Origin: Humidesulfovibrio sp.
GTDB taxonomy: Bacteria; Desulfobacterota; Desulfovibrionia; Desulfovibrionales; Desulfovibrionaceae
NCBI RefSeq assembly: GCF_035560995.1
Contig: NZ_DATMYK010000186.1
Span: 1-58,106 of the forward strand
Direction of reading: 5' to 3'
DNA: 58,106 nt
Numbering within the stretch: the stretch's first letter is position 1; each line of letters begins with the position of its first letter. Made by a program: the position numbers and the translations under genes. Shown in pieces: positions 1,735-15,305 of the stretch. A model generated the notes under the pieces. The model saw only the letters and a program-made list of their open reading frames with translations. It ran no database searches and was not told where the DNA came from.

Positions 1735-2379
1735 GAATTAGTGGACACTTACTAGGAAACAGGGGCTGGGCTGAAGAACATTTGGCTCGTCGCCAACCGC
1801 AGGAAGGAGAGAGGGTCATTACATCATATATTTTAGCGTGTTGAGCGGCAAGCTTGAATTAACCGACACTACAGGAATACCCACGCCGAATTGAGGAGCC
1901 GTCTCCTCACTGCCGTTGTCGCTCACGTGCGAAGAGAGCAACGCGGTTGCACTTAGGCCATAGGCATTCCGCCCCGGCCTGTTTTTCCATTTTTATTTTT
2001 GTTTTCTGCTGGTTGAGAATTAGGGGACACCTACGGAAAGGGCAGGCGTGTTTTTGCCCGATGTGGCGGCTCAAAGTGGTTAGTGCAATCAGGAAAGGGT
2101 AAGATCTTGGATATGCCGTTCTGCCACATGACGGTATGCGAAATTTTCTCAACCATTTCAGCGAACACGAATTAACGGACACTACAGGAACAACAGGATT
2201 GGCTGCACAGAAAACAAGGCATCATACTGCCTCTTCACGTGCCACTATCAGGATTCTACTCACCGAACACTGCGGGAGAATTCAATGTACATATAACAAC
2301 AACAAAATATCCGCAGATCACCCTACTCTCCCTAGTGTTGCGGCCAGATCGGACCGAATTACCGGCCACCTAGAGGAAG
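1735..2379 (+). repeat. Array of five degenerate 23-bp direct repeats resembling T7-group phage RNAP promoters
   Basis: 1736 AATTAGTGGACACTTAC-TAGGAA; 1857 AATTAACCGACACTACA-GGAATA; 2018 AATTAGGGGACACCTAC-GGAAAG; 2170 AATTAACGGACACTACA-GGAACA; 2357 AATTACCGGCCACCTAG-AGGAAG. Each is preceded by G. Start-to-start spacing 121, 161, 152, 187 bp. Confidence 0.85.
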
Positions 2380-2619: not shown

Positions 2620-2832
2620 ATGAAACACAGGAAGCACGGCAAAACGCCGTGCGAAATCAAGTCAGTCACCATGTCGGCAGAGGAACAGCGCCAACTCGAC
2701 GCCATCCGTGAGCGGTTCCACGACGGAAGCATCAACCAGATGCCCTCGCGGTCGCTCATGTTGGCGGTGTTGGTGGATTGGGCATTCAAACACGGCTTCG
2801 GGCCGAAAAACACAGAGGTTCATCATGGATAA
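2620..2832 (+). CDS. 70-aa ribbon-helix-helix (CopG-like) DNA-binding protein, putative
   Basis: ATG 2620 with GAGGA RBS; IKSVTM strand, SAEEQRQLDAIRERF helix, SRSLMLAVLVDW helix; overlaps the next start. Confidence 0.6.
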   Translation: MKHRKHGKTPCEIKSVTMSAEEQRQLDAIRERFHDGSINQMPSRSLMLAVLVDWAFKHGFGPKNTEVHHG

Positions 2833-3127
2833 TGCGATTGCGAATGCGTTCAACGACGAGCACACCAGACACGAACAGGCCCTTTCGGCTCTTATGGCCT
2901 TGGAAGAGGCCTGCGCCAGTCCCAGCAAGCGAATCATACTGGAGGGGCTTGGAAACTACCTCTCATCGTGGAAGCAGATGTATATCGGAAGGTTTGAGGA
3001 CATGCAGCGCTTTCAGTACGACCTTAATCGTTATCTCGAAGCCATGGCGAAAGAACTAGGGGCCGATATCAGCAATCTTCCTGAGTGCCCTGGCGTGGAG
3101 CGGGAGTTCCTGAATGACCTTTGCTGA
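2825..3127 (+). CDS. Hypothetical protein (100 aa, helical)
   Basis: ATG 2825 with GAGGT RBS; overlaps both neighbours. Confidence 0.65.
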   Translation: MDNAIANAFNDEHTRHEQALSALMALEEACASPSKRIILEGLGNYLSSWKQMYIGRFEDMQRFQYDLNRYLEAMAKELGADISNLPECPGVEREFLNDLC

Positions 3128-4109
3128 TTCCGCCTTCCGTATCCCCTGCATCGGCGACATCCTCGACCACGAGTTCCCTCCCCGTGGAGACCTCGTGGCG
3201 CCCTGGCTCAAGGAGGGCGAAAGCGCTCTGATCTACGCTGCTCCTGGCGTGGGCAAGTCCATGTTCGCCCTCTCGCTGGCCCTGGCGGTGGCCGGTGGTG
3301 GTAAGTACCTGGATTGGGAGACTCCCAAGCCTTACCGGGTGCTGTTCGTGGACGGCGAGATGCCCATGGACACCATCAAGGAGCGCACGGAGCTGCTACT
3401 CAAAGCCTTGCCCGGCATCGACCAGGAGCTGATCCGACAGAACCTGCACGTCTTTGCCCGGCAGTTCCAAGACGCCTCAGTGACCTTCCCCAACCTCGCG
3501 ACCACCGAAGGACAGGCCGAACTGGAGCGCCAGGCCGTGGGCTATGACCTCGTGATCCTGGACAACCTGTCGACCCTCGCCAATGTGGAGGACGAGAACG
3601 CCTCCAAGGCCTTCCAGCCCATCGTGGGCTTCCTCATGCGCATGAAGCAGCTCGGGCAGGCCTGCATCCTCATCCACCACTCTGGCAAGAAAGCCTCGAC
3701 CTACCGAGGGTCATCCATGCTGGCGACCACCTTCGAGGTGATCCTGGGCCTGGAGAAGCTCACCGGACTGAAGGCTGCCCACGGTACTGCGTTCCAGATC
3801 AAGTGGGACAAGCTCAGGGCCAAGCCCGATGAGCGGATCAAGTCGTGGGAGGTCTGGATGGATGAGGATCGTTGGGAGTTCGAGGCTGCGGCCAGCGAGG
3901 AGGTCGACCTCCTGCTCGAGGCCCTCAGGAGCGGCAAGTACGTGAACCAGAAGGAGCTGGCCGAGGCCCTCAAGTGGGACGAATCCAAGGTGACAAGGAC
4001 CAAGGCAAAGGCCATCGCCACTGGAGCGATCGACACGAAGCAGTGGGGGACCGCCTTTGGCCGAGCCAAGGATGCCCGTACTGAAACCATAAAGGAGGGA
4101 GACTTCTAG
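3114..4109 (+). CDS. RepA-like / AAA_25 (RecA-fold SF4-type) helicase-ATPase with C-terminal HTH
   Basis: Walker A APGVGKS, VLFVDGEM, Walker B LVILDNLS, LIHHSGK, RGSS motif; C-terminal NQKELAEALKWDESKVTR HTH-like segment. Confidence 0.88.
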   Translation: MTFADSAFRIPCIGDILDHEFPPRGDLVAPWLKEGESALIYAAPGVGKSMFALSLALAVAGGGKYLDWETPKPYRVLFVDGEMPMDTIKERTELLLKALPGIDQELIRQNLHVFARQFQDASVTFPNLATTEGQAELERQAVGYDLVILDNLSTLANVEDENASKAFQPIVGFLMRMKQLGQACILIHHSGKKASTYRGSSMLATTFEVILGLEKLTGLKAAHGTAFQIKWDKLRAKPDERIKSWEVWMDEDRWEFEAAASEEVDLLLEALRSGKYVNQKELAEALKWDESKVTRTKAKAIATGAIDTKQWGTAFGRAKDARTETIKEGDF

Positions 4110-4306: not shown

Positions 4307-4507
4307 ATGATGTTGGACTACGCCACTGCGATGGAGACGCTGAGAAGGGAGGGCTACGAGGTCCGCTGGGAGATGGTGGACGGGGAGCTTCTGGAGGTGA
4401 TCCCCATGGATGCGGTCTTCAGGCTCTGCGATCTGACGGGGACGCCCAAGGCCGCGAGACTCAAGGCCGCAATCAAGAAGCAGTTCTGCGGCAAGAAGAA
4501 GCGCTAG
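4307..4507 (+). CDS. Hypothetical protein (66 aa, basic C-terminus)
   Basis: GAGGAG RBS 7 nt before ATG 4307. Confidence 0.6.
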   Translation: MMLDYATAMETLRREGYEVRWEMVDGELLEVIPMDAVFRLCDLTGTPKAARLKAAIKKQFCGKKKR

Positions 4508-6379: not shown

Positions 6380-6586
6380 GTGCAAGACGTTTCAACAAAC
6401 ACGCTCCCGGCCACAGGCTTTTTGCGCCTCCCGGCGGTGCTTAACCTCATTCCCGTCGCTCGCTCGACCTGGTGGGCTGGGGTCAAGTCGGGCCGCTACC
6501 CCAAGCCAGTGAAGCTGGGGCCTCGCATGTCGGCTTGGCGAGCAGAGGATGTCCGGTCCCTCATCGCCAGCTTTGGCCCCCAGTAA
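6380..6586 (+). CDS. alpA: AlpA-family regulator / recombination directionality factor
   Basis: GFLRLPAVL...RSTWWAGVKSGRYPKPVKLGPRMSAWRAEDV signature; GTG start with AGGAG RBS. Confidence 0.9.
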   Translation: MQDVSTNTLPATGFLRLPAVLNLIPVARSTWWAGVKSGRYPKPVKLGPRMSAWRAEDVRSLIASFGPQ

Positions 6587-7346: not shown

Positions 7347-9182
7347 ATGAATCAGCCCGCCCTTTCCGCCTTCATCTGGTCCGTTGCCGACCTCCTGCGC
7401 GGTGACTACAAGCAGTCCGAGTATGGCAGGGTCATCCTGCCCTTCACCGTACTCCGCCGTCTGGACTGCGTCCTGGAGAAGACCAAGCCCGCCGTACTTG
7501 CAGAGTACGAAGCCAAGACGGCGGCTGGCGTGAACCCTGGCCCCTACCTGCTCCGCAAATCCGGCCAGCATTTCTTCAACACCTCCCCAATGGACATGGT
7601 CAAGCTCCTGGGCGCGCCGGACGACATCCGCGAGAATCTGACCAAGTACGTGCAGTCCTTCTCGCCCGAGGTGGAGGACATCTTCGAGCGCTTCGACTTC
7701 TTCAGCCAGATTGACCGGCTTGCAAAATGTCACCTCCTCTACCTTGTGGCCGAGCGCTTCGCGCAGATAGACTTGCACCCGACTGAAGTGAGCAACGCTC
7801 AAATGGGCTTGGTGTTCGAAGAACTCATCCGCAAATTTGCGGAAGCATCCAATGAGACCGCTGGGGAGCACTTCACCCCGCGCGAGGTCATCCGCCTCAT
7901 GGTCTCGCTGCTGTTTGTGGAGGACGAAGAGGAATTGACGGGCACCAGCGCGGTGCGCACCATCTACGACCCCACGGCGGGCACGGGCGGTATGCTCTCC
8001 GTTGCCGGGGAGTACCTGGCCGAGCGCAACCCCAAGGCCCGGCTCACCATGCACGGCCAGGAACTCAACGACGAGTCCTACGCCATCTGCAAGGCGGACA
8101 TGCTCATCAAGGGCCAGGACGTTGCCAACATCGTGCCCGGCAACACCCTCTCCGACGACGGCCACCCGCACAAGACCTTCGACTATATGCTCTCCAACCC
8201 GCCCTTTGGCGTGGAGTGGAAGAAGATCGAGCGCGAGGTCCGCAAAGAGCACGAACAGCATGGCTACGACGGGCGCTTCGGGCCGGGCCTGCCGCGCGTC
8301 TCTGACGGCTCTCTTCTCTTTCTCCTGCACCTCTGTAGCAAGATGCGCCACGTGAATCAGGGCGGCTGCCGCTTTGGAATCGTGCTCAATGGCTCGCCGC
8401 TGTTCACTGGCGGCGCGGGCAGCGGAGAGAGCGAAATACGCCGCTATGTTCTGGAAAATGATCTTGTGGAAGCCATCATCGGCCTGCCCACGGACATGTT
8501 CTACAACACCGGCATCTCCACCTACGTTTGGATTCTCTCCAACCGCAAGCCCGTCCAGCGCAAAGGCAAGGTCCAGCTCATCGACGCCAGCAGCTTCTGG
8601 CAGAAGATGCGCAAGAGTCTGGGCAGCAAGCGCAAGGAGCTTTCCGACCAGCATATCGCGGACATTACCCGGCTGTTCCGCGACTTCACCGAGGCCAAGC
8701 TCGCCACCGCGCTAGACGAAGGTGGCAAGGAAGTGGCCCGGCACATCCTCCTGCCCGGAGATGCCGCTCCCGAGGCCCCGGCAGGCGGCAAGGTGAAACT
8801 CGCGCCCCTCTCGCGCATCTTCAAGACCCAGGATTTCGGCTACCGCGCCATCACAGTGGAGCGCCCCCTACGCGACGAGGCGGGCAAGATCGTGCTGGGC
8901 CAGAAGGGCAAGCTTAAGGGCAAGCCGCAGCCAGACAGCAGCCTGCGCGACACCGAAAACGTGCCCCTGGCCGAGGACGTGGCCACGTACTTCAAGCGCG
9001 AGGTACTACCCCATGCGCCGGATGCCTGGATTGACCATGACAAGACCAAAACGGGCTACGAGATTCCCTTCAACCGGCACTTCTACGTGTTCGAGCCGCC
9101 GCGTCCGTTGGCCGAGATCGACGCGGACTTGCTGGTGGTCACGGACCGCATTCTGGCCATGATCGAGGGGCTTCAGGCATGA
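7347..9182 (+). CDS. hsdM: Type I R-M N6-adenine methyltransferase subunit
   Basis: Start [19 protein letters not shown]; [10 protein letters not shown], motif [11 protein letters not shown], motif IV NPPF. Confidence 0.97.
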
Positions 9183-10501
9183 GCTTCCCGCGCTACGAGA
9201 AGTACAAGGACTCCGGGGTGGAGTGGCTGGGCGAGGTGCCGGAGCATTGGGGGCTTCAGCCACTCTGGACGCATTTTCGTCGCATCAAGCGGGTTGGATT
9301 TTCTGAAGAGGAATTACTCTCCGTATATCGCGATTATGGTGTTATCCCAAAATCAAGTCGTGACGACAATTTTAACAACCCCTCTGATGATCTCGGCACA
9401 TACCAGCTTGTCGAGCCAGGGGATCTTGTTCTCAACAAGATGAAGGCGTGGCAAGGGTCTGTAGCCATCTCAGAGTACCGGGGAATAGTGAGTCCCGCGT
9501 ATTTTGTGTATGCGGCCACCCATTCAGCGAATGGGCGCTTCCTGCACTACCTAATGCGCTCCTTGCGCTATATTTCTGGCTACCTGTCGCTGTCTAAGGG
9601 CATACGAGTGAACCAGTGGGACATTGACCCACAGTACCACTCCCGAATGCCGATAGTCTTGCCCTCACTCCCAGAGCAGCAAACCATCGCGGCGTTCCTC
9701 GACCGCGAAACCGCCAAGATCGACGCCCTTGTGGCCGAGCAGCAGCGGCTCATCACTCTGCTGGCGGAAAAGCGCCAGGCCATCATCTCCCACGCCGTCA
9801 CCAAGGGTTTGAACCCCAACGCGCCCATGAAGGACTCGGGCATCGAGTGGCTGGGCGAGGTGCCGGAGCATTGGGAGGTGGTGCCCGTAAAATGGCTCAC
9901 CACTCACATCACTTCTGGGCCACGAGGCTGGTCTGATCTCACTGGTGACGAAGGCGCAGCATTTTTCCAAAGCCAGCACATCGGCTCTGCGATGGATGTC
10001 GCCCTTATTGATCCCAAGCGGCTTATTCCGCCAACCGACACAGATTCTGAACGAGCGAGACTGCAAGCCGATGATGTTGTACTCTGCATAACGGGCGGAA
10101 GAACCGGCGCAGTAGCCCATATTCCAGAACAGCTTGAGGAGGCATACATTAACCAGCATGTATGCCTTCTCCGGCCGCAAGAGGATGTGCTTGGACGTTT
10201 TCTGGCTTACGGGCTTTTCTCAACAGGAGCACAGCGGCAGTTGGCGTGTGCCAGCTACGGCCTAAAGCAAGGGTTGGGCCTTGAGCAAGTGAACTCGACA
10301 TTTCTTGCAGCACCCCCTTCCAAACAAGAACAACGTGACCTAGTCATGTTCCTGGACAAGCAAACCGCCCACCTCGACACCCTCACTCAAGAGGCCAATC
10401 GCGCCGTCGAACTGCTCAAGGAACGCCGCGCTGCGCTCATCTCCGCCGCAGTGACGGGCAAGATTGACGTGAGAGGACTTGCAGACAAGGAGGCCACATG
10501 A
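9179..10501 (+). CDS. hsdS: Type I R-M specificity subunit
   Basis: Two TRDs, each preceded by KDSG(V/I)[10 protein letters not shown]; coiled-coil conserved regions; [13 protein letters not shown] tail; ATGA overlap with hsdM. Confidence 0.96.
9221..9875 (+). repeat. 31-bp perfect direct repeat pair in hsdS (9221-9251, 9845-9875)
   Basis: GAGTGGCTGGGCGAGGTGCCGGAGCATTGGG occurs twice, 624 bp apart (in frame). Confidence 0.9.
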
Positions 10502-11403
10502 GCGACATCAAACTGTTCCGCACTGGGCCGCAAGGCGTGGCAGAACTCAAAGGTCAGTCCCTGGCCCTGGAACGGTCGCTTCAGGCGCTCATGGAAAAGA
10601 ACCTGGAGACACTGCTCGGCGTGCGGTTCCTGGCCTCGGAGTACTCCACCGGAGCCAAGCACAAGGGGCGCATCGACACCCTCGGCATCGACGAGAACCG
10701 CTGCCCGGTCATCATCGAATACAAGCGCACCACAAACGAGAATGTCATCAGCCAGGGCCTGTTCTACCTGGACTGGCTCATGGACCATCAGGCCGAATTC
10801 AAGCTGCTCGTGCTCGACAAGTTGGGCAAGAAAGAAGCGGACGGCATTGAATGGTCTGGCCCGCGCCTGTTGTGCATCGCCGGGGACTTCACCCGCTATG
10901 ATGAGCACGCCGTGCGGCAGATGAACCGCAACATCGAGCTGATCCGCTACCGCCATTTCCCGGATGGCTTCCTCATTCTGGAGCGGGTAAATTCGGTAAG
11001 CGCCGAGACCATCCCAGTGGGACCGAAAGAAATCACCGCGAAGCACTACAAGAGCGTTTCAGAGCACCTTGCCCAGGCCCCTGAGGCGCTGAAGGAACTC
11101 TATCATGCCTTAGAGGATACCCTCCAAGGCCTGGGCGACGATGTCGAGAAGAAGGTCGTCAAGTGCTACATCGCGTTCAAACGCATCAAGAACTTCGCCT
11201 GTGTGGAAGTCCGCGTGAAAGAGCAGCGTCTGCTCGTCTACGTAAAATGCCCGGCGACGCCGGAGAATCTTATTGAAGGATTCACCCGTGACCTGAGCAA
11301 TATCGGTCACTTTGGCACGGGAGACTTCGAGATCACTATCCGCAACCGAGACGACCTGTCGCGGGCGCAGCGGTTCTTTGAGTTGAGCTACCAGGAGAAT
11401 TAG
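10498..11403 (+). CDS. NucS/EndoMS-like PD-(D/E)xK nuclease fused to DUF5655-like domain
   Basis: GRIDTLGIDENRCPVIIEYKR and Q...Y motif; C-terminal YIAFKRIKNFACV...GHFGTGDFEI; ATGA overlap with hsdS. Confidence 0.8.
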   Translation: MSDIKLFRTGPQGVAELKGQSLALERSLQALMEKNLETLLGVRFLASEYSTGAKHKGRIDTLGIDENRCPVIIEYKRTTNENVISQGLFYLDWLMDHQAEFKLLVLDKLGKKEADGIEWSGPRLLCIAGDFTRYDEHAVRQMNRNIELIRYRHFPDGFLILERVNSVSAETIPVGPKEITAKHYKSVSEHLAQAPEALKELYHALEDTLQGLGDDVEKKVVKCYIAFKRIKNFACVEVRVKEQRLLVYVKCPATPENLIEGFTRDLSNIGHFGTGDFEITIRNRDDLSRAQRFFELSYQEN

Positions 11404-11442
11404 GACTAGCTGATTATCTGGCGGAATTTGGGGGGATGAAGC

Positions 11443-11931
11443 ATGGCAAACGTCAATCCAGATCGGATCATGCAAGAGTTTGCAGCCAGAACTCGGAAGA
11501 ATATTCTCCACATAAAAACGGGGAAAGAACGCTTCAGGCATGATGTATTCGAGGTCACTGAGGTGTTCAATTCATTATTAAGCTTGATCGTGCTTCCTGA
11601 AGCCCTTAAACTTGATCCCCCACTTAATACAGCCCTTGAAAGACTTTCAAGAGATCGTTGGCCGGAAGCAATCATCAACCTTTCTCCTCCTTTCCCCAGC
11701 TTGGGCGTCTTTCTCTATTGCATGAGGCACTCGATAGCCCATGGAGATTTCGCCTTTCGACCTGGGAGGGACGGGGAGATTGCGTCTGTCGAATTCGGCG
11801 GTTCATGTCGGCTACCACGGAATCCTACTGAATGGCTGCTGGAACTCACTGTCGACGATCTATTCATGTTTGTGTTTGCACTATGCGACATGTGGGTAAA
11901 TTTCTGCGAAAACACAACGTTTAAGCGATAG
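11443..11931 (+). CDS. HEPN-domain protein (pEK499_p136-like), putative RNase toxin
   Basis: Rx4H motif RHSIAH; upstream EVTEVFNSLLSLIVLPE helix; more AT-rich than neighbouring hsd genes. Confidence 0.75.
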   Translation: MANVNPDRIMQEFAARTRKNILHIKTGKERFRHDVFEVTEVFNSLLSLIVLPEALKLDPPLNTALERLSRDRWPEAIINLSPPFPSLGVFLYCMRHSIAHGDFAFRPGRDGEIASVEFGGSCRLPRNPTEWLLELTVDDLFMFVFALCDMWVNFCENTTFKR

Positions 11932-11960
11932 TCCACTCGTTTGCTGGCGCAAGGATAATA

Positions 11961-14900
11961 ATGAGCACCCTCCACAAAGAAATCCACCTCGAAGCGGAAA
12001 TCTGCGACCACTTAGCAGTGCACGGCTGGCTGTACGCCGAGGACGACGCCAAGGCCTACGACCGAGGGCTCGCCCTGTTTCCAACGGATGTGATCTCCTG
12101 GGTGCAGGAGACACAGCCCAAGGCCTGGGAGGCGCTGGTCAAGAATCATGGCGCAAGCGCCGGGGCGGCCCTTTCACAGCGTATCCGGCAGGTGTTGGAC
12201 CAGAGGGGCACCCTGGAGGTGCTACGCCACGGAGTGGACATGGTCGGGCTTAAGCAGACCCTCCCCCTGGCGCAGTTCCGGCCTGCCCTGGCCATGAACC
12301 CAGATGCACTGGCCCGCTACGCTGCGAACCGCCTGCGCGTGGTGCGGCAGGTGCGTTACTCTCTGCAAAATGAAAACGCCTTCGACCTTGTGCTCTTTCT
12401 GAACGGCATCCCCGTGGCTACGGCGGAACTCAAGAGTGACTTCACGCAGTCCGTGCAGGACGCGGTGGACCAGTACCGCTTTGACCGCGACCCACAGCCC
12501 AAGGGCAAGCCTGCCGAGCCGTTGCTCGCCTTCCCCAGCGGTGCGCTCGTGCATTTCGCAGTGAGCAACAGCGAAGTGCGCATGACAACGAGGCTCAAAG
12601 GGGTCAAGACCCGCTTCCTGCCCTTCAACAAGGGACGGGACGGTGGCGCGGGCAACCCGCCCAACCCCAAAGGACACACCACGGCCTACCTCTGGGAAGA
12701 GGTCTGGGAACGTGAAAGCTGGCTGGAGATTCTTGGCCGCTACCTCGTGACCGAGCGTGACAGCAAGAAGCAGATCAAGGCGCTCATATTCCCCCGCTAC
12801 CACCAGCTTGACGCCACGCGGAAGCTCCAGGCAGCGATCTTGAAGGAGTCACTGGGGCAAGACGTCAGCGGCAAGTACCTCATCCAGCATTCGGCAGGCT
12901 CTGGAAAAACCTACTCCATCGCCTGGACGGCCCATTTCCTGGCCGATCTGCACGACGCCTCAGACAAAAAGCTCTTCGACACCGTGCTCGTCGTGTCTGA
13001 CCGAACCGTGCTCGATGAGCAGTTGCAGGAAGCCATCTTCAGCTTCGAGCGCACTACGGGCGTGGTGGCCGCCATCACCAACGAAACCAGCAGCAAGAGC
13101 AAAGCCCTGGCGGATGCGCTCTCCGGCAATAAAAAGATAGTCATCTGCACCATCCAGACATTCCCCTTTGCCCTGGAAACCGTGCAGAAGCTGGCCGCGA
13201 CCCAAGGCAAGCGTTTCGCCGTCATCGCCGACGAGGCCCATTCCTCCCAAACCGGTGATGCCGCAGCAAAGCTTAAGGCCGTGCTCAACGCGGACGAACT
13301 GGCGGAGCTTGAGGACGGCGGCGAGGTCTCCACCGAAGATGTCTTGGCCGCTGAGATGGCCGCGCGGGCAGCCAAAAAAGGCATCACCTACGTGGCCTTC
13401 ACGGCAACGCCCAAGCACAAGACACTGGAACTTTTCGGCCAGCGCCCGCACCCCGATCAACCGGTTGGGCCGGGCAATCTACCTGAGCCGTTCCATGTCT
13501 ACTCCATGCGCCAGGCCATCGAAGAAGGCTTCATCCTCGACGTGCTCAGAAACTACACGCCGTTCAAGACCGCCTTCCGGCTGGCCTACAAGGGTGAGGA
13601 GTATGACGAGACGCAGGTCGAGCGCAGCGAGGCCCTCAAAGGCATTCTGCGCTGGGTGCAGCTGCACCCCTACAACATAAGCCAGAAGGTCCAGATGGTG
13701 GTGGAGCACTTCCTGAAAACCGTACAGCCTCTTCTGGGGGGCCGTGGCAAAGCTATGGCCGTGGTCAGCAGCCGCCTGGAAGCCGTGCGCTGGAAGATCG
13801 CCATGGACTCCTACATCAAGAGCCAGGGCTACAAGCTCGGCACGCTTGTAGCCTTCTCTGGTGAAGTGAATGACAAGGACTCCGGGCCGGAGCCGTTCTC
13901 CGAACACAGCAAAACGCTCAATCCAATGCTGAAGGGCAGAGACATCCGCAAAGCCTTCGCCACGGACGAATTTTCCATCATGGTCGCGGCCAATAAATTC
14001 CAAACCGGCTTTGACCAACCCCTGCTGTGCGGCATGTACGTGGACAAGCGCCTTGCCAACATCCAGGCCGTTCAGACGCTTTCCCGCCTCAACCGCGCCT
14101 ATCCCGGCAAGGACAATGTCTACGTGCTGGACTTCCGCAATGAACCCGCCGAGGTGCTGGCCGCTTTCAAAACCTACCACACCACAGCGGAGCTTGAGGA
14201 TGTCACCGACCCGAACTTGGTCCTCAACCTTCGGGCCAAGCTCGATGCTTCCGGCCATTATGACACCCCGGAAGTGGAGAGAGTGGTCACCGTTGAACTC
14301 AACCCGAAGGCCAAGCAGGGCGATCTGACAGCCGCAATCACCCCCGTGGCCGACCGTTTGCTGAAGCGCTTCAAGGCCGCAAAGGAGGCCCTGACGGCGG
14401 CCCAGGCCGTAAAAGATGACACTGCCGCAGGCGAAGCCCGCGACACCATGAATGCGCTCACCCTCTTCAAGCGCGACCTCATGAGCTACCTGCGCATGTA
14501 TGCGTTTCTCTCGCAAATTTTCGATTACGGCGACACGGACGTGGAGAAGAAGGCCATCTTTTATAAACGGCTACTGCCCTTGCTGGAATTTGGACGCGAG
14601 CGAGATGGCATCGACCTGAGCAAGGTGGTGCTGACCCACCACAACCTCAAGTCTCATGGGAAAGTCGCTCTTCCGCTGAACGATGGGGAGGCTCCCAAAA
14701 TCAAGCCTATGACCGAATCGGGTGACGGTTCCGTTCAAGAAAAAGAGAAGGCGCTGCTCGCGGAGATCATCGCCAAGGTCAACGACCTCTTTGAAGGCGA
14801 ACTCACGGACGATGACCAGCTTATTTATGTGAACAACGTGCTCAAGGGCAAACTCCTAGAATCCGAGATGCTCGAACAGCAGGCCAAGAGCAACACCAAG

Positions 14901-15095
14901 GAGCAGTTCGCGAACTCCCCCGACTTGGCCAAGGAAATTATGAATGCCATCATGGACGCGCTGGCGGCGCACACAAACATGAGCACCCAGGCGATTAATT
15001 CGGAACGAGTGAGAGCGGGGCTAAAGGACGTGCTTCTTGGGCCTGGCCAGCTGTATGAGTCCTTGCGAGGAAAGAGCGGAGAGGCAAGCACCTGA
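11961..15095 (+). CDS. hsdR: Type I restriction endonuclease subunit R
   Basis: DLVLFLNGIPVATAELK nuclease motif, HSAGSGKT, DEAH, FTATP, TGFD, QTLSRLNR. Confidence 0.97.
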   Translation: MSTLHKEIHLEAEICDHLAVHGWLYAEDDAKAYDRGLALFPTDVISWVQETQPKAWEALVKNHGASAGAALSQRIRQVLDQRGTLEVLRHGVDMVGLKQTLPLAQFRPALAMNPDALARYAANRLRVVRQVRYSLQNENAFDLVLFLNGIPVATAELKSDFTQSVQDAVDQYRFDRDPQPKGKPAEPLLAFPSGALVHFAVSNSEVRMTTRLKGVKTRFLPFNKGRDGGAGNPPNPKGHTTAYLWEEVWERESWLEILGRYLVTERDSKKQIKALIFPRYHQLDATRKLQAAILKESLGQDVSGKYLIQHSAGSGKTYSIAWTAHFLADLHDASDKKLFDTVLVVSDRTVLDEQLQEAIFSFERTTGVVAAITNETSSKSKALADALSGNKKIVICTIQTFPFALETVQKLAATQGKRFAVIADEAHSSQTGDAAAKLKAVLNADELAELEDGGEVSTEDVLAAEMAARAAKKGITYVAFTATPKHKTLELFGQRPHPDQPVGPGNLPEPFHVYSMRQAIEEGFILDVLRNYTPFKTAFRLAYKGEEYDETQVERSEALKGILRWVQLHPYNISQKVQMVVEHFLKTVQPLLGGRGKAMAVVSSRLEAVRWKIAMDSYIKSQGYKLGTLVAFSGEVNDKDSGPEPFSEHSKTLNPMLKGRDIRKAFATDEFSIMVAANKFQTGFDQPLLCGMYVDKRLANIQAVQTLSRLNRAYPGKDNVYVLDFRNEPAEVLAAFKTYHTTAELEDVTDPNLVLNLRAKLDASGHYDTPEVERVVTVELNPKAKQGDLTAAITPVADRLLKRFKAAKEALTAAQAVKDDTAAGEARDTMNALTLFKRDLMSYLRMYAFLSQIFDYGDTDVEKKAIFYKRLLPLLEFGRERDGIDLSKVVLTHHNLKSHGKVALPLNDGEAPKIKPMTESGDGSVQEKEKALLAEIIAKVNDLFEGELTDDDQLIYVNNVLKGKLLESEMLEQQAKSNTKEQFANSPDLAKEIMNAIMDALAAHTNMSTQAINSERVRAGLKDVLLGPGQLYESLRGKSGEAST

Positions 15096-15281: not shown

Positions 15282-15305
15282 ATTCGACTGACACCCTCTC
15301 CGCCA
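15282..15305 (+). other. Probable attR: duplicated 3' end of a tRNA (Ser-like)
   Basis: ATTCGACTGACACCCTCTCCGCCA matches a typical tRNA-Ser 3' end GTTCGAATCCCACCCTCTCCGCCA at 20/24, ending in discriminator G plus CCA. Confidence 0.75.

Follow-up and report, generated by a model that had tools for sequence, protein, structure and literature searches.

Analysis of the 58,106 bp contig NZ_DATMYK010000186.1 of Humidesulfovibrio sp. (this whole stretch is referred to as the window) revealed five co-oriented copies of a promoter-like motif between 1735 bp and 2379 bp of the + strand. Judged by sequence, the five sites are likely to be promoters that the single-subunit RNA polymerases of T7-like phages recognise. 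We further consider it probable, with real room for doubt, that the array is the helper-sensing control region of a satellite-type island in which these T7-like phage promoters would act as the sensors. The sites, with the five bases at −12 to −8 given as their code, were as follows:

1736–1758, + strand: site 1 (−17 to +6), code GTGGA, T at −11, geometric +1 at 1753
1857–1879, + strand: site 2, code ACCGA, C at −11, predicted +1 at 1874
2018–2040, + strand: site 3, code GGGGA, G at −11, predicted +1 at 2035
2170–2192, + strand: site 4, code ACGGA, C at −11, predicted +1 at 2187
2357–2379, + strand: site 5, code CCGGC, C at −11 and C at −8, geometric +1 at 2374

Counted from the G that precedes −17, the sites start at 1735 bp, 1856 bp, 2017 bp, 2169 bp and 2356 bp, span 645 bases and align without gaps. 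An earlier note, made from the letters alone, had described five such sites, and all were found at these places with these bases at −12 to −8. The shared frame consists of an AT-rich block at −17 to −13, a CAC with C at −7 and a purine-rich start, all at T7 spacing. The note had read the start as GGAA; its purine-rich character stood but the geometric +1 is not G at site 1 (T, 1753 bp) or site 5 (A, 2374 bp). A profile built from the five sites scored them at 28–36, and no other position in the 3.08-Mb assembly exceeded 17. The pattern GAATTA-N5-CAC occurred six times on both strands of the assembly, five of these inside the array, and the looser AATTA-N5-CAC occurred on average 0.03 times, and at most twice, in 2000 dinucleotide shuffles of 1700 bp–2620 bp. 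Two contigs of one public run, perhaps the source sample, matched 1479 bp–2685 bp without difference.

The region had been called apparently non-coding, which agreed with the lack of any convincing gene within 1700 bp–2619 bp and of any Rfam family at cut-off in a scan of the array region. Structured RNA leaders were considered and rejected, as the five leaders folded no better than shuffles (z −1.1 to +0.3). Sites 2 and 4 were identical at 21 of 22 bases. The spacers between the sites were unrelated to one another, with a best phage match of only E = 2 and no match to the fetched prophages, and the fixed positions were intact in all five sites. A pyrimidine-rich word was present twice, near both ends of the array (1701 bp–1715 bp and 2322 bp–2336 bp), possibly by chance.

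Comparison with known phage promoters showed that site 2 shared 14 of 17 positions with the commonest natural T3 promoter (counted by hand) and site 3 shared 12 of 17 with one natural K11 promoter. Both figures had been given before and both hold, but SP6 was closer than either phage: site 3 and one natural SP6 promoter had the same base at all 13 positions from −17 to −5. Site 4 matched another natural SP6 promoter at 14 of 17 positions. The promoters of Autographiviridae (T7, T3, K11, SP6 and the ProddE type) have the same AT-rich block, five code bases, CAC and purine-rich start. At −4 to −1 the array follows a ProddE-like pattern and not TATA, and the 3′-end of site 5 resembles the ProddE type most.

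The independent part of the promoter evidence came from a repeat analysis of Desulfovibrio phage ProddE. The longest exact repeat of its genome proved to be the same motif, 25 bases in two copies, one lying 82 bases behind the polymerase gene and the other near the right end. The annotated promoters of T7, T3 and K11 likewise lie 11–26 bases behind the polymerase gene. Several related prophages carry the frame with a code of their own, seven copies in one of them; no site was seen in prophages L050 and L060. The search of related phages that had been proposed for this consensus therefore found it in ProddE and related prophages, including behind the polymerase gene. Among 154 polymerase loci tested of 160 fetched, 31 had a sense site within 400 bases behind the gene, compared to 4 with an antisense site and 3 with a site one kb further on. 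With a profile built from phage sites only and −12 to −8 masked, the five sites ranked 1–5 in the whole genome (19.0–22.9 versus 14.5 for the next; 17.2–21.1 versus 16.4 with another training set), a ranking that is partly circular because the phage training sites were first spotted with the array's own profile. In phages such promoters stand behind the polymerase gene, whereas the array has five codes in a row and no polymerase gene. In phages L065–L067, two or three tandem promoter copies follow the polymerase gene, a possible source of tandem arrays.

The earlier note had located much of the variation between the sites in the bases read by the specificity loop of the polymerase, and this was borne out by co-variation of the −11 and −8 bases with loop residues 748 and 758. 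Across 30 of 31 rows of loop and code (L276, with no loop residues, was dropped, and related phages were counted separately), a basic residue at T7-748 accompanied −11 G in 14 of 16, an acidic residue accompanied −11 C in 10 of 10, and Tyr758 accompanied −8 G in 7 of 8 rows. ProddE and the L046 prophage, whose polymerases are 90% identical, have different residues at 758 and sites that are alike except at −8. PMC11880802, in the portion available, names 748, 756 and 758 as determinants and pairs 748D with C and 748N or K with G; the positions and pairings observed here agree with that portion. Judged by this co-variation, the codes are real specificity classes.

The array was more diverse in its codes than single phages. 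The mean pairwise difference at −12 to −8 was 0–0.98 in seven phages with at least three sites each (one chance T3 row, 899–916, was dropped beforehand) versus 2.3 in the array, where three different bases occupy −11. Of the five codes, three are known in phages with different loops, of other hosts. GTGGA (site 1) occurs four times around the RNA polymerase gene of the Martelella prophage L239, whose loop has Val at T7-748, and ACCGA (site 2) lies behind the L287 polymerase gene and is one base off in L185 and L223 (Glu748, Lys758). GGGGA (site 3) occurs in SP6. The proposal of a panel tuned to several polymerases thus fared unevenly: at least three code classes are supported by the sequences and by the co-variation with the loop, but this support does not extend to five distinct readers, and the scans yielded no cognate helper.

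The array lies between a resolvase gene and a helicase-like gene, in the following order:

1066–1094, + strand: sigma-70-like promoter before the resolvase gene, by consensus match (2 found versus 1.4 expected in shuffles, weak)
1140–1700, + strand: serine resolvase with a helix-turn-helix domain, directly upstream of the array (PF00239, E 4e-38; PF02796)
2533–2575, + strand: terminator-like hairpin (2533–2567) with T tract, between the array and the first gene
2620–2832, + strand: conserved protein of 70 amino acids with two predicted helices, possibly a small DNA-binding protein
2825–3127, + strand: protein of 100 amino acids, replaced by other small genes in close relatives
3114–4109, + strand: AAA_25 (RepA/DnaB-like) ATPase, likely a helicase
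4307–4507, + strand: protein of 66 amino acids, conserved in L017
4584–4838, + strand: protein of 84 amino acids, conserved in L017
5030–6163, + strand: tyrosine integrase of the temperate T7-like phage type

The protein of 70 amino acids gave a low-confidence model and an empty fold search, leaving its ribbon-helix-helix resemblance unconfirmed, and that of 100 amino acids had no usable Atlas match. The helicase had no relative in the plasmid collection at E 1e-20. The best named match of the tyrosine integrase was ProddE (36%), followed by other T7-like phages with integrases, and it shared 50% identity with the integrases of three viral contigs carrying a T7-type polymerase gene. An exact 15-base repeat lies inside two of the genes (3141 bp–3155 bp and 4767 bp–4781 bp), possibly by chance.

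The position of the array between the resolvase gene and the gene of a possible DNA-binding small protein raised the question of whether the repeats are binding or recombination sites for the resolvase, the small protein or the helicase. This is most improbable, as the motif occurs in phages and islands that lack those genes. It is also asymmetric; five loci with this resolvase and no helicase module (L021–L025) have no array, and the arrays of L093, L132, L133 and L138 have no resolvase upstream.

Homologous islands had been proposed for a comparison of arrays, and site numbers and code sets indeed differed between them. The helicase gene was found in 13 other genomes of 400. In the 2.5 kb upstream of it, the 14 islands including this one contained 25 sense sites and no antisense site, with 1 downstream. 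Nine of the 13 other islands had sense sites (20 in total, two of them weak singles) and five of the 13 had two or more. The layout of sites, hairpin terminator, small gene and helicase recurred in the related islands. Code sets differed even between the close relatives L017 and L018. Seven of the 25 distinct island codes, from 16 elements, equalled one of 26 phage codes; the null mean was 1.7, and 3 of 10,000 shuffles reached this count. Metagenome contigs matched the island up to 1678 bp and from 2572 bp but not across the array, and one metagenome contig shared only site 4. As relatives match the flanks and not the array, the array behaves as an exchangeable slot.

A slot that is not common to relatives, together with fragments of T7-type DNA polymerase and exonuclease genes in sister islands and the absence of a found helper, would also fit sites that a recombination hot spot had acquired through repeated capture of phage DNA and that are now inert. 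We rate this as quite unlikely. Across genera the sites retain their orientation, their position and the hairpin after them; the five sites have kept their fixed positions while their spacers resemble neither each other nor known phages. In L018 and L093, moreover, whole units were duplicated and then came to differ at code bases.

Several sister elements carry helper-type genes. The terminase small subunit is encoded by L026 and L316–L318 and internal virion genes by L093, L317 and L318; antirepressors and pieces of T7-type exonuclease or polymerase genes are also present among the sister elements. L026 (3571 bp–11,354 bp, G033:C223) encodes a tRNA-Ser, an integrase, a resolvase and an antirepressor, followed by three differently coded sites and then a T7-type terminase small subunit, and is the most satellite-like member among the islands seen. 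Site 3 of the array shares 18 identical bases with a site in L026. When the L026 terminase gene was used as a forward test in 301 genomes, four matched and three of the four had an upstream sense site, one of them weak; the fourth match was near a contig end. In L316, L317 and L318 phage-type sites lie upstream of the terminase small subunit, and internal virion protein B has a homologue in L317 and L318. The polymerase search listed no match in these three genomes.

L093 (7042 bp–15,940 bp, G338:C7) encodes a long tyrosine integrase and has four sites in duplicated units of 82–83 bases, and a hairpin. One of the four agreed at 25 of 25 bases with a prophage promoter of the same genome, and another had the ProddE code, which is present in two islands. 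The sites precede homologues of two internal virion genes, whose ejection-type products are 27% identical to the ProddE proteins. L093 also has a TAAAG-type repeat tract like that of the ProddE right end. In L132 (10,450 bp–11,600 bp) and L133 (10,580 bp–12,700 bp) the arrays comprise six sites apiece with as many as five codes, some of which match that of T3, and L133–L135 contain pieces of T7-type exonuclease and DNA polymerase genes. The closest relative of the module is L017 (7720 bp–11,477 bp), with three sites of one code and hsp20, groES and groEL between the resolvase gene and the array.

A hairpin with a T tract followed the last site in 10 of 12 regions and was stronger than all eight shuffles in each, two narrowly; two of the regions are from one island and two islands share a hairpin. 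A class II terminator word was matched at 6 of 7 positions at 2587 bp. The hairpin and the spacers without genes would suit an array of phage promoters that primes helper-driven replication, with short transcripts ending at the hairpin as at a T7-group primary origin; T3 has its annotated primary origin directly behind its first promoter. Such a role, which would be compatible with helper sensing, seems unlikely to us. No long AT-rich tract is present, 60-base windows over 1700 bp–2620 bp reaching at most 62% A+T. The element has its own helicase-like gene downstream, and in other islands the sites are followed by the terminase small subunit and other genes.

As the helper-sensing control region of a satellite, the array would work as follows. 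In a host without a T7-type polymerase, none having been found in this assembly, the sites would be silent and the hairpin at 2533 bp–2567 bp would stop host RNA polymerase entering from the resolvase gene. On infection by a T7-like phage, or on induction of such a prophage, its polymerase would fire at the site that fits its specificity loop. Phage polymerases read through some hairpin terminators; partial read-through here would lead to expression of the small genes, the helicase and possibly the integrase, upon which the element would excise and replicate. Several codes would widen the range of usable helpers, as the co-variation of code and loop suggests.

The module is set in a larger island with further features:

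6380–6586, + strand: AlpA-type regulator or excisionase
7347–15095, + strand: cargo of type I restriction-modification genes, a PDC-S18 candidate defence gene and a HEPN gene
15292–15305, + strand: 14-base copy of the tRNA-Ser gene 3′-end, likely right attachment site of the outer island

Contig C168, which may hold the other end of the outer mosaic island, carries the complete tRNA-Ser and a P4-type integrase; the left part of the island extends beyond the contig end. Within the cargo, the PDC-S18 candidate (E 3e-142) and the HEPN gene lie between the type I specificity and restriction genes (10,498 bp–11,931 bp). The DNA between 15,305 bp and 15,700 bp was 66% like that after the tRNA-Ser on C168, including an apparent decayed start of a P4-type integrase, and is probably the remnant of a second island in tandem. 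Between 1 bp and 788 bp, a low-GC stretch encodes on the − strand a possibly membrane-bound protein of 83 amino acids and the first part of a longer protein that the contig end truncates, neither with a PADLOC match. A short G/C palindrome at 897 bp–918 bp is possibly due to chance.

The restriction-modification, PDC-S18 and HEPN genes of the surrounding island, and the fact that four small proteins are unassigned, also allow for an anti-phage device, in which the panel detects T7-like polymerases and drives an inhibitor or abortive small protein, or soaks up the polymerase. Satellites often interfere with their helpers. We nevertheless hold a defence role to be decidedly unlikely: PADLOC gave no convincing defence match for the four module proteins scanned (2825, 3114, 4307 and 4584), and the defence cargo lies at least 5 kb downstream and differs between islands. 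Titration of a phage RNA polymerase, which the earlier note had also offered, found no support, five chromosomal sites probably being few for this purpose.

Exact-pattern scans for a cognate helper phage gave 7, 0 and 1 matches in viral contigs and 13 in metagenomes; in the flanks that were read, none of them had a T7-like structural or polymerase gene next to it on the matching strand. Unrelated genes or contexts were listed for 7 of 7, 1 of 1 and, in the metagenomes, 7 of 13 matches; for the other six metagenome matches, the only basis of judgement was the lack of a match to ProddE or island proteins. A pattern search of 401 genomes matched 13 genomes versus 6 matches of the control pattern, and only G338 and G070 were useful. 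No phage counterpart was found for sites 4 and 5.

These results include several that weigh against a helper-sensing satellite. The viral and metagenome scans, made in incomplete phage collections, found none of the five codes in a phage of this lineage, and the unbiased phage code set also lacked all five. T7-type polymerase genes were present in 16 of 401 genomes of the family and in none of the 21 of the genus. Four of the 13 related islands have no site and two more a weak one only, and the arrays of L017, L026 and L138 each hold a single −11 class. As K11 and SP6 each tolerate variation at two positions, and sites 2, 4 and 5 have −11 C in common, these three may share one reader. The hairpin between the array and the first gene is strong and could end all transcripts before that gene. 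No attachment-type repeat was found around the array-helicase module itself, and this element has none of the TAAAG-type repeats of the ProddE right end and L093 and no terminase, capsid or internal virion gene; nor did the assembly yield a capsid or terminase gene. The partial circularity of the phage-profile ranking counts here as well. Regarding packaging, this copy may use another route, may have lost the genes or may keep them beyond the contig end. The remark that no RNA polymerase gene lies in the window was extended by our search, which found no T7-type polymerase gene in the whole assembly (93.65% complete).

Enterobacterial T7 islands with tandem T7-like promoters were reportedly described by Chen and Schneider in 2006 and proposed as satellites. 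They are said to have two or three promoters within about 150–620 bases, no RNA polymerase or structural genes, a tyrosine integrase upstream and end direct repeats of 17–24 bases, at a size of 4–13 kb. The present island resembles them in its tandem promoters, the lack of a polymerase gene, few non-structural genes ahead and a tyrosine integrase nearby, and differs in lineage, in having five sites instead of two or three and in at least three −11 classes. Whereas the T7 islands reportedly have their tyrosine integrase upstream, here a resolvase is upstream and the T7-type integrase downstream of the array; the P4-type integrase on C168 may be the upstream integrase of the island. No repeat flanks the module here, and the 14-base tRNA-Ser repeat bounds the larger outer island in which the module is nested. 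Like phage-inducible chromosomal islands (PICIs) and P4, the group has a tRNA-linked integrase and a helicase/primase module, with an antirepressor and terminase small subunit in sister elements. Unlike in those satellites, the likely trigger would be the helper RNA polymerase acting on DNA sites and not derepression or a late activator. This copy also differs in having no packaging-redirecting gene; such genes are present in L026, L093 and L316–L318.

The class is already in print, T7 islands being cited in the part of PMC2189734 available. No functional test of T7 islands and no activity test of any site of this lineage was found in the literature searched, which leaves most subscription papers outside it. 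New here are the lineage, the link between loop and code, and the sister elements with helper-type genes together with a co-resident matching prophage. This family puts the satellite idea within direct reach of a test: a T7-like prophage and an island sharing an identical 25-base site reside in a single genome, and ProddE has been isolated. The natural pairs of code and loop are added candidates for orthogonal polymerase-promoter sets.

More broadly, and as a tentative generalisation that we regard as possible but rather doubtful, sulfate-reducing bacteria may harbour a family of satellites of temperate T7-like phages, in which an exchangeable cassette of promoters determines the range of helpers. 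Codes would be added to the cassette by capture or by duplication and change of code bases, making each array an adjustable list of usable helpers, and some members would supply their own terminase small subunit and DNA-ejection proteins. If the array is a helper-sensing control region, the sensing of several helpers would be written in DNA sites alone, and satellites would extend to Autographiviridae in anaerobes.
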